Source: Escherichia coli (GTDB lineage: Bacteria > Pseudomonadota > Gammaproteobacteria > Enterobacterales > Enterobacteriaceae). Taken from it: DNA of 64,000 bases. The stretch lies in NCBI RefSeq assembly GCF_030013595.1, contig NZ_CP122768.1. One strand, given 5' to 3'. Below, one piece after another: positions 24,501 through 25,781 of the stretch. Each line of letters begins with the position of its first letter. The first letter of the stretch is position 1. The notes below the pieces were generated by a model. It saw nothing but the letters and a program-made list of their open reading frames with translations. It was not told the DNA's origin and searched no databases. Position numbers and translations under genes: made by a program.

Positions 24501-25781
24501 CTATAGCTGTTTATTCCAGAGATGCTTGAAAATATCTAATGTTGAGACAACATTGGCAGGCGACATTCGGTTTAATGAGGGTAGAAAGGGATGAGCCTCC
24601 AGGAAGTTGATAAAACGAGTCGCGCTTGCCAACGTCGAATACCGCATTTCATTTGCTTTCTTGTTTCCTGTAAGGTTACAAACAGCCATTGAATAATCAC
24701 GGGCGGAAAATGCACGCCAGACATTATTTCTCACGCCACCACTCAAAAATAACCGCGGCGGCGTATCATAATGAGTCGTTTTCTCGCCGCGTTCTTTCAC
24801 AAAGGAAATATGGCACCGGCCTTGATGAATATGCTGTAAATTAGCCATCAGACAACCGCCTAATATAAAGCACTCGTGATCAAGGTAGTGTTGAATATTT
24901 ATAGAATATGCTTCAGTCAGTGCTCTAACCAGTTCAAAATGGCGATACGCCGGAAGAACCGGTTTCACCAGCATCCCCGGATCGTTTTGATGTAATATCG
25001 CCCGACCATAATCAATATCAAATAAGGTATCACGCCGCATAGTAAGTAACTCCTTGCGTTGTACGTGATGCGCCAGTGTACCTGGAGACAAACGCTCTTC
25101 ATAACTTGATGCATATTGATAATGCGACTCTACCGCTGATGAAGAATAATTTGTTGAAATAGCGACGACTCTACCGCTTTGTTCTTCTGCGGTAACAAGA
25201 CTATAAAGATAGTTGTTACTACAGTTAAACTTTACGCGAAAAGCGCGGGTAGATAGAGAAATATCAGAAGCAGAAGAGTACTGGCAACTTTCTTTATAGT
25301 TTACTTCCCGGGCTAGTTTCATCAACTCACGGTTAAGCCCTGTGCTATTAAGAAGTAATAATTTACGGATATCTGCAAGTGAAGCGCCTTGATCAATCAT
25401 CAATGCTAAATGTGTTCTTCGCGGCGTTGTATTTACATGATCCAGAGTGATAAAAGTTCTGGAACAATGATGACAATACATTCTCCTCTGCCCCTGAGCT
25501 GAATAGCCATACTTTTTCAGAGATGTGCTTCCGCAAGCTGAACATTGTGGAACCAACCCTCTCCATGAATGATTAACACGATTACGATAAATATTAAGAG
25601 ATCGTTCAGATATCACAGGAAACAAGTAACCGCATTCCCGACATAAAATATTTTTGCCTTGTGCAATATAATCCTGGCTATTCAACAACCCCAGGTTTTT
25701 GCATCCTGGTGTTTTGCAACAATCAACATTTACGTTGGTAAACATATTCACTCCCTGCGAATACCCGGATATTATCGTCAT
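24501..25781 (-). CDS. Uncharacterised Cys-rich protein with tandem InsA-like zinc-ribbon motifs and a putative HTH
   Basis: 426-aa ORF; N-terminal CxxxxC...CxxC and CxxC...CxxC pairs (CSACGSTSLKKYGYSAQGQRRMYCHHCSRTF resembles the IS1 InsA zinc ribbon), then HTH-like ASLADIRKLLLLNSTGLNRELMKLA; no CX3CX2C radical-SAM motif. Confidence 0.4.
   Translation of the reverse strand: MTIISGYSQGVNMFTNVNVDCCKTPGCKNLGLLNSQDYIAQGKNILCRECGYLFPVISERSLNIYRNRVNHSWRGLVPQCSACGSTSLKKYGYSAQGQRRMYCHHCSRTFITLDHVNTTPRRTHLALMIDQGASLADIRKLLLLNSTGLNRELMKLAREVNYKESCQYSSASDISLSTRAFRVKFNCSNNYLYSLVTAEEQSGRVVAISTNYSSSAVESHYQYASSYEERLSPGTLAHHVQRKELLTMRRDTLFDIDYGRAILHQNDPGMLVKPVLPAYRHFELVRALTEAYSINIQHYLDHECFILGGCLMANLQHIHQGRCHISFVKERGEKTTHYDTPPRLFLSGGVRNNVWRAFSARDYSMAVCNLTGNKKANEMRYSTLASATRFINFLEAHPFLPSLNRMSPANVVSTLDIFKHLWNKQL

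Follow-up and report, generated by a model that had tools for sequence, protein, structure and literature searches.

A stretch of 64,000 nucleotides of Escherichia coli DNA (the window) was analysed around an uncharacterised open reading frame (ORF), which occurs once in the window and lies in the minus-strand gene order dnaK, dnaJ, mokC/sokC, a channel gene of the OmpK/Tsx family, a sulfatase gene, the ORF, nhaA and nhaR. Together with the channel and sulfatase genes, the ORF forms a variable island, flanked by hokC and nhaA; blastn shows about 112 bp at this site in a K-12-like strain, and the island is found in 1275 of 5426 complete E. coli genomes (~24%), at a median of one place per genome. 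The original prediction had described the product as a 426-residue protein that no name in E. coli fits, with two InsA-like zinc ribbons, a helix-turn-helix (HTH) and a large C-terminal domain, perhaps a regulator of the sulfatase locus derived from a domesticated transposase, perhaps a new metal-binding factor. The ORF and every peptide string quoted for it are present at 24501-25781 (Table 1). Here, we argue that the gene descends from a transposase of the IS1 superfamily, that it no longer moves, and that its product may have become a local transcription factor.

Table 1. Features of the ORF, the island and the related loci. Positions are those of the window unless another locus is named; residues here and throughout are numbered in the 414-residue form of the protein unless stated otherwise.
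Feature	Position	Strand	Details and basis
ORF	24501..25781	minus	uninterrupted; 426 residues counted from first ATG
Coding sequence, 414-residue protein	24501..25745	minus	stop codon 24501-24503; ORF list, RefSeq start, homolog N-termini, dN/dS
Shine-Dalgarno sequence GGGAG	25751..25755	minus	5 nt ahead of ATG 25745; read directly from sequence
Zinc ribbon 1	25632..25718	minus	residues 10-38: C10, C15, C35, C38; K11 conserved
InsA-like module	25311..25556	minus	residues 64-145: zinc ribbon 2 (C68, C71, C91, C94), then three-helix HTH
RNase H-like (DDE-transposase-type) domain	24504..25274	minus	residues ~158-414
Terminator/attenuator-like hairpin	25787..25827	minus	13-bp perfect arms 25798-25826, 3-nt loop, T-run; from sulfatase stop to ORF
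Periplasmic sulfatase	25875..27368	minus	upstream of ORF; RefSeq, motif comparison, dN/dS 0.029
OmpK/Tsx-family outer-membrane channel	27388..28149	minus	first island gene; RefSeq, Pfam Channel_Tsx on orthologs
CRP-like site TGCGATCTCCATCACG	28267-28282	minus	upstream of channel gene; six enterobacterial upstream regions aligned
Conserved non-coding block	28313-28359	minus	upstream of channel gene; common to the same six loci
Variable island (channel, sulfatase, ORF)	24490..28538		4,049 bp; blastn against K-12-like locus
sokC antitoxin RNA	28619-28771	plus	Rfam RF01794, 118.8 bits; beside mokC/hokC, at far island edge
Paralog, E. coli 118UI	4202-5332 of its locus
Paralog, Salmonella	6986-8110 of its locus

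Translation most likely starts at the second ATG, at 25745, rather than at the first, because a Shine-Dalgarno sequence precedes it, the RefSeq entry (WP_025210172.1, ‘IS1/IS1595 family N-terminal zinc-binding domain-containing protein’) begins there, the homolog N-termini in our family alignment (34 sequences, 19-80% identity to the query) all read MF..N(V/I)N and match this start, and the ATG at 25781 directly abuts the T-run of a terminator-like hairpin. A start at 25781 would prepend 12 residues without conservation. The gene is a selected one and not a relic, since the ratio of nonsynonymous to synonymous substitution rates (dN/dS) between the window and a divergent E. coli allele is 0.10 and is alike in both halves of the protein (0.11 for residues 1-155, 0.10 for residues 156-414); the sulfatase and nhaA gave 0.029 and 0.017 in the same comparison. 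Full-length homologs occur in at least seven enterobacterial genera, and the family as detected by sequence is small, with 94 representative clusters at E <= 1e-3 among 1.84 billion.

The absence of terminal inverted repeats, together with synteny across genera, argues that the gene is not an insertion sequence (IS). Neither terminal inverted repeats nor an invertible segment was found around it, the only pairs being short, intragenic and due to chance, and the same dnaJ-nhaA interval holds the gene in Escherichia, Salmonella, Klebsiella and Citrobacter, whose orthologs share 53-80% identity. The coding sequence is a single uninterrupted ORF, without the insA/insB' arrangement and its programmed -1 frameshift. 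On the curated IS1 model NF033558 it scores 27.2 bits against a cut-off of 100, in a match confined to residues 80-160 of the 426-residue form, whereas a genuine IS1 InsAB' scores 243 bits. Searches of plasmids and phages returned essentially misfiled chromosomal records and chromids, with no sign of carriage by mobile elements, and PADLOC gave no match. The original prediction had named two findings that would undo it, a plain IS with flanking inverted repeats and an ORF conserved in no other genome; what we see is a single-copy, syntenic and widely conserved gene without such repeats. We regard it as very probable that the gene is immobile, derived from a transposase and devoid of the Asp-Asp-Glu (DDE) triad.

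The link to IS1 comes from the N-terminal part of the protein. When the family profile was aligned by hhalign with IS1 InsAB' (a sequence confirmed as IS1 by its score on NF033558), residues 64-145 matched InsAB' residues 4-88 with a probability of 96.6% and E 5.8e-10, a span that takes in the entire InsA zinc ribbon and HTH. Within it, zinc ribbon 2 matches NCBIfam NF050000 (IS1/IS1595 zinc ribbon) at 31.8 bits, above the cut-off of 28; six of the 34 family members match Pfam Zn_ribbon_InsA and seven match Zn_ribbon_IS1595 weakly, and PHROGs yielded only a weak match to a transposase zinc ribbon. The segment that had been called HTH-like can thus be named more exactly as a homolog of the InsA HTH. 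Its helices span residues 108-118, 123-130 and 134-153, resemble LuxR/sigma-4 HTH domains in the predicted structure, and are predicted to form a DNA-binding domain. The claim of two InsA-like zinc ribbons holds in part: both four-Cys modules are invariant or nearly so in the alignment and the second is InsA-like by profile, but the first, identified from Cys columns kept in 33-34 of the 34 sequences, matched no profile in NCBIfam or Pfam. Matches to C2H2 zinc fingers among PDB sequences were rejected as compositional, due to the Cys-rich N-terminus.

The larger C-terminal part, roughly 300 residues for which no motif could previously be assigned, is not featureless. Searches of Pfam, NCBIfam, PHROGs, PADLOC and PDB sequences gave no match for residues ~158-414, and no Pfam domain, DDE domains included, is matched by this region in the query or in any of the 34 members; instead, the AlphaFold2 model built with the family alignment (pLDDT 90.9, pTM 0.91) predicts an RNase H-like fold of the transposase/integrase type. 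Both signs of that fold are present: the core order beta1-beta2-beta3-alpha1-beta4-alpha-beta5 and a structural likeness to known members, the Foldseek matches in the PDB being PIWI domains and the transposase ISCth4 (E 1e-4 to 1e-2, TM 0.2-0.26). The model thus places the domain firmly in the RNase H-like superfamily and at no finer level; it is the InsA-like head which suggests a transposase lineage for the whole protein. A Foldseek search of AFDB50 also listed 538 structural relatives at E <= 1e-3. Among them are longer proteins of 570-660 residues (E8WS89, E8WJC5, A0A1H3BKZ2, Q11ZU0 and others) that come from Geobacter, Thiocapsa, Cupriavidus and Polaromonas; they bear the labels ‘insertion element protein’ or ‘C2H2-type’ and might be still-mobile relatives of the family.

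The positions at which a DDE triad would be expected are occupied by other residues, in keeping with the original prediction, in which no obvious triad was seen. The first, on beta1, is T166 (25248-25250), with Thr in 26 and Ser in 6 of the 34 sequences and never Asp or Glu. The second, just after beta4, is E291 (24873-24875; Glu in 31, Asp in 3), and the third, in the last helix, is N411 (24513-24515), kept in 32 of 34. With no first catalytic carboxylate anywhere in the family, transposase chemistry appears to have been lost, and because Thr166 replaces the first catalytic Asp, the body of the protein has probably lost the ability to cut DNA. Some role, for example the binding of a ligand or metal or an altered catalysis, has probably been retained by the old pocket, as the conservation of its residues suggests; R238 is also among the best-conserved residues of the family. 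It had been proposed that the C-terminal Cys and His residues make the protein a new metal-binding factor. This idea did not survive the alignment, in which those residues are mostly not conserved: H269 alone is invariant, the others being kept less often (H286 in 27, H290 in 28, C298 in 22 and C311 in 17 of 34).

The company kept by the gene is of particular interest. In Salmonella, Klebsiella and Citrobacter the order is a Tsx-like channel (inverted in Salmonella and Citrobacter), the sulfatase, a radical S-adenosylmethionine (SAM)/SPASM anaerobic sulfatase-maturating enzyme (anSME) and the homolog, and the loci of Salmonella and Citrobacter additionally hold a 5'-nucleotidase and arylsulfotransferases. 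An Atlantibacter homolog of 33% identity is found in the same four-gene cassette at another chromosomal site. In these four genera the homolog follows the anSME gene in the same orientation after a gap of 12-27 nt; another homolog of 33% identity (P0060) lies convergent with a radical-SAM gene, outside the operon. In E. coli the anSME gene is gone, and the spacer past the conserved hairpin leads straight into the ORF. A link of homologs to sulfatase genes, which the original prediction had proposed to check, is borne out by the enterobacterial orthologs but not by distant relatives, which adjoin deo or 5'-nucleotidase genes; sulfatases thus account for just some of the neighbourhoods. Of these relatives, three homologs with 20-25% identity, including one from Photobacterium, are divergent from deo genes or placed behind them, and in two Vibrio species the homolog adjoins a 5'-nucleotidase gene. 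A scan seeded with a five-sequence sub-alignment of one marine sub-family returned 16 loci, from Aliagarivorans, Agarivorans, Motilimonas, Celerinatantimonas, Gynuella, Psychromonas and Alginatibacterium, and every one of the 16 has the homolog and a deo-type operon (tal, nupC, deoC/A/B/D, add) in divergent orientation, the gene order within the operon being variable. Psychromonas ossibalaenae and P. aquimarina each carry two paralogs, each beside its own deoD/tal-containing operon. Adjacency to functionally coherent genes, often in divergent orientation, is conserved between distant taxa, with the sulfatase cassette in five genera at two chromosomal sites as well as the deo and 5'-nucleotidase sets.

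E. coli and Salmonella also possess a paralog of the protein (WP_001309893.1, 376 residues, ‘hypothetical protein’), which hhalign matched to the family profile with a probability of 100% and E 3e-62. Paralog and divergent 5'-nucleotidase gene form a two-gene insert between metF and metL, and the paralog is present in ~1700 of the 5426 E. coli genomes. Its two zinc ribbons are intact, and so are the Thr, Glu and Asn positions. In both species its 132-nt spacer contains a near-perfect CRP site and the inverted arms CAACGA...TCGTTG, the sequence between the arms being divergent.

The non-coding DNA of these loci offers further clues to how the genes may be controlled. The stem of the hairpin between the sulfatase and the ORF is upheld by compensatory changes in Klebsiella, Salmonella, Citrobacter and Atlantibacter, where it stands between the sulfatase and anSME genes, and it is probably an intra-operon attenuator that lowers downstream expression. 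Its palindrome (25798-25826) was considered as an operator and rejected, the compensatory stem changes and the T-run being those of an RNA hairpin. Upstream of the channel gene, the comparison of six enterobacterial promoter regions yielded one CRP-like site and one conserved block (Table 1), which together make 28267..28359 the candidate control region of the island. Both elements are common to the six loci despite the inversion of the channel gene in Salmonella and Citrobacter. In the marine loci a 16-nt motif, TTWMCMWWATRTGTKG, is found 39-192 nt before the homolog start and always in one orientation; a matrix built from four of these sites has its best match of the whole ~13-kb locus there in 9 of 12 held-out loci. 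More copies of this motif lie by the nupC promoters of Aliagarivorans and Agarivorans, with a CRP-like site close by, and the marine interval between homolog and deo operon also contains a conserved stretch that looks like a small minus-strand ORF. The intergenic palindromes of Vibrio and Photobacterium are mostly terminator-like hairpins, and CRP-like sites are visible there by eye. The marine motif and the inverted repeat of the paralog fit autoregulated DNA-binding proteins without proving such a role.

We propose that the protein is a domesticated IS1-superfamily transposase serving as a local transcription factor, a reading that we hold to be somewhat better than an even bet. According to this proposal, the gene would be a chromosomally fixed, immobile descendant of a transposase which kept the InsA-type DNA-binding head and added a second zinc ribbon. 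Its product, as local transcription factor of the ompK/tsx-like–sulfatase island, would bind operator DNA in the CRP-dependent control region, and its own level could be set by read-through of the conserved post-sulfatase hairpin. The former catalytic domain may have been turned over to oligomerisation and possibly to the sensing of an effector, with T166, H269, H290, E291 and N411 lining the old active-site pocket. The DNA binding, the target genes, the effector and the direction of regulation are what we infer from these features. The wider family could then be imagined as local regulators of periplasmic and transport genes that scavenge nucleotides, nucleosides and sulfated compounds. In its boldest form, which we offer as a tentative possibility and would not ourselves call probable, the proposal makes this protein the first member of a bacterial transcription-factor family, not yet described, that derives from an IS1-type DDE transposase, with the dead pocket as effector sensor, controlling deo, 5'-nucleotidase and sulfatase modules in Enterobacteriaceae, Vibrionaceae and other marine gammaproteobacterial genera (Psychromonas, Agarivorans, Motilimonas and others).

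Several observations weigh against a transcription factor of this kind. The paralog is without the HTH segment, and HTH-mediated binding therefore cannot be the universal mode of the family. A k-mer comparison and a marine-motif scan of the enterobacterial promoters produced no operator attributable to the protein, and in a matrix scan TTWMCMWWATRTGTKG does not recur in the E. coli or other enterobacterial island. As the last gene of a sulfatase-anSME operon in enterobacteria, the homolog holds a position that would also suit an enzyme or an accessory subunit. Foldseek places Argonaute PIWI domains of the PDB slightly above transposases, which is why only the superfamily level of the fold is firm, and T166, E291 and N411 were mapped by secondary-structure order, not by superposition. 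Finally, T166, E291, N411, H269 and H290 rank among the best-conserved residues of the family; a domain that is simply dead would not usually show such conservation, which might reflect a catalytic or ligand site retained in altered form.

This last point would suit a protein that is an enzyme still, with an altered active site (Thr/Glu/Asn plus His). Such an enzyme might cleave or process DNA or RNA, perhaps in the service of nucleotide/nucleoside salvage, or might perform some site-specific transaction on DNA, and its zinc ribbons and HTH would direct it to the substrate. The best-conserved residues (E291 being always acidic) do cluster at the old triad positions and nearby histidines, the fold is that of nucleases and transposases, and the neighbouring genes concern nucleotide and nucleoside catabolism. 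However, to our knowledge every RNase H-like two-metal enzyme has the first carboxylate, and none of the 34 members has an acidic residue at that position, no inverted repeats or invertible segment lie nearby, and divergent pairing with a single catabolic operon is the habit of a regulator and not of a nuclease; we consider an enzyme unlikely. The same operon position could instead point to an accessory factor for sulfatase maturation or export, which would partner the radical-SAM anSME or hold the sulfatase unfolded before secretion, and the close, co-oriented placement behind anSME in Salmonella, Klebsiella, Citrobacter and Atlantibacter speaks for it. Yet the ORF has remained under purifying selection in E. 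coli, where both alleles lack the anSME gene, distant homologs and the paralog adjoin deo or 5'-nucleotidase genes with no sulfatase, and the domains are nucleic-acid-binding and transposase-like, with no radical-SAM/SPASM, formylglycine-generating enzyme (FGE)-sulfatase or chaperone signature in Pfam or NCBIfam. Such a role seems to us quite improbable.

The conserved hairpin raises the further question of whether the protein acts on RNA, for instance as an antiterminator at the hairpin between the sulfatase and the downstream genes. Compensatory changes keep this hairpin ahead of downstream genes in five genera, and RNA binding is within the capacity of zinc ribbons and of an RNase H/PIWI-like fold. 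Distant homologs, however, lie divergent from deo or 5'-nucleotidase genes (convergent once) and not downstream of such a hairpin, no equivalent hairpin was noticed in those stretches of their intergenic DNA that were read, where no systematic search was made, and the HTH has its homolog in InsA, where it binds DNA. We give an RNA-binding regulator very little credence. Least credible of all would be an active transposase of an unrecognised IS or a decaying relic without function. The IS1-like zinc ribbon and HTH and the label ‘IS1 family transposase’ given to some family members by databases may seem to favour the former, but the gene is single-copy, without inverted repeats and fixed in an orthologous position across genera, it scores 27 bits against 100 on NF033558, and among the 34 members no DDE Pfam match and no acidic residue at the D1 position were found; against a relic speaks the dN/dS of 0.10. 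The transcription factor thus remains the reading that we prefer.

The island itself has features of its own. Two strongly diverged alleles of it exist in E. coli, with ~81% DNA identity, and synonymous divergence between the window (23083-25745) and E. coli SCU-124 is extreme (dS: ORF 0.93, sulfatase 0.63, nhaA 0.35). For the divergent allele of SCU-124 the annotation gives the ompK/tsx-like gene (7586-8347 of its locus) as a pseudogene interrupted by an internal stop; its sulfatase and ORF are intact. The formylglycine position of the sulfatase is Ser (SSPSR, 27120-27134) in both divergent E. coli alleles, and the orthologs of Klebsiella, Salmonella, Citrobacter and Atlantibacter, which adjoin the radical-SAM/SPASM anSME, have Cys (CSPSR). 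The E. coli sulfatase gene nonetheless remains strongly constrained by purifying selection (dN/dS 0.029). A Ser-type sulfatase normally needs an anSME. Either the E. coli enzyme is served by another anSME (AslB or YdeM) or its chemistry has changed. Past sokC lies the 3' end of an IS4-like (IS421-type) transposase gene, at ~28990-29300, which is also present in the K-12-like strain. A sharp divergence of B2 from non-B2 E. coli has been noted for the region beside nhaAR (PMC4182557), and the only mention of the module that we found in the literature is that of a ‘putative cerebroside sulfatase’ (Lescat et al. 2014).

Searches of the literature by locus tag and concept returned no paper on the protein or its family, and RefSeq offers a domain-level name only, in agreement with the original prediction that this is not a named E. 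coli protein. Relatives are labelled ‘cytoplasmic protein’, ‘IS1 family transposase’ or ‘lactate dehydrogenase’ in the databases, and we regard the latter two labels as misleading. The family is conserved and selected, its main domain has no Pfam family and its neighbourhoods are clean, which makes the question of a regulator testable. If family members are confirmed as regulators, they would constitute a new regulator class for nucleoside and nucleotide scavenging, and would help to explain the variable sulfatase island beside nhaAR. In eukaryotes, DDE transposases that were domesticated as host regulators are well documented; in the searchable literature we found no published family of bacterial regulators of this type derived from a DDE transposase.

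Like IS1 InsAB'/InsA, the protein has a four-Cys zinc ribbon followed by an HTH and then an RNase H-like domain. It differs from IS1 in its extra N-terminal zinc ribbon, in being a single ORF, in a C-terminal domain of ~255 residues with inserted strands compared to ~140 in IS1, in Thr for the first Asp and the lack of any sequence-level match to the IS1 DDE region, and in its single-copy, syntenic state without inverted repeats. InsA is a transcriptional repressor that binds the ends of IS1, and thus provides a precedent for the regulatory use of an InsA-type head. With IS1595 the protein shares the N-terminal zinc-ribbon type (NF050000) and the single-ORF layout, and in some IS1595 subgroups the Glu of the third catalytic position is replaced by Asn, comparable to N411 here; but DDE_Tnp_IS1595 (PF12762) is unmatched in the query and the 34 homologs, and the protein lacks the first Asp and has an immobile locus. 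The structural likeness to the IS256/Mutator-type ISCth4 (PDB 6xg8) and to Tn5 (1mm8), at 7-10% identity and a Foldseek E of ~4e-3, implies no membership, the query being without a DDE triad. A like logic underlies the transcription factors domesticated from transposons, such as plant FHY3/FAR1 from Mutator transposases and the bacterial TldR repressors from TnpB, which similarly kept a DNA-binding head, lost catalysis and became fixed beside host genes; the ancestor here would differ in belonging to the IS1 superfamily. Finally, DeoR and CytR are the classical E. coli regulators of nucleoside catabolism genes. Although their fold and DNA-binding domain are wholly unrelated to those described here, they appear to share a regulatory niche with this family, whose members lie divergent from deo operons with CRP-like sites, and CRP-like sites are likewise found at the E. 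coli island promoter and at the promoter of the 5'-nucleotidase gene beside the paralog.

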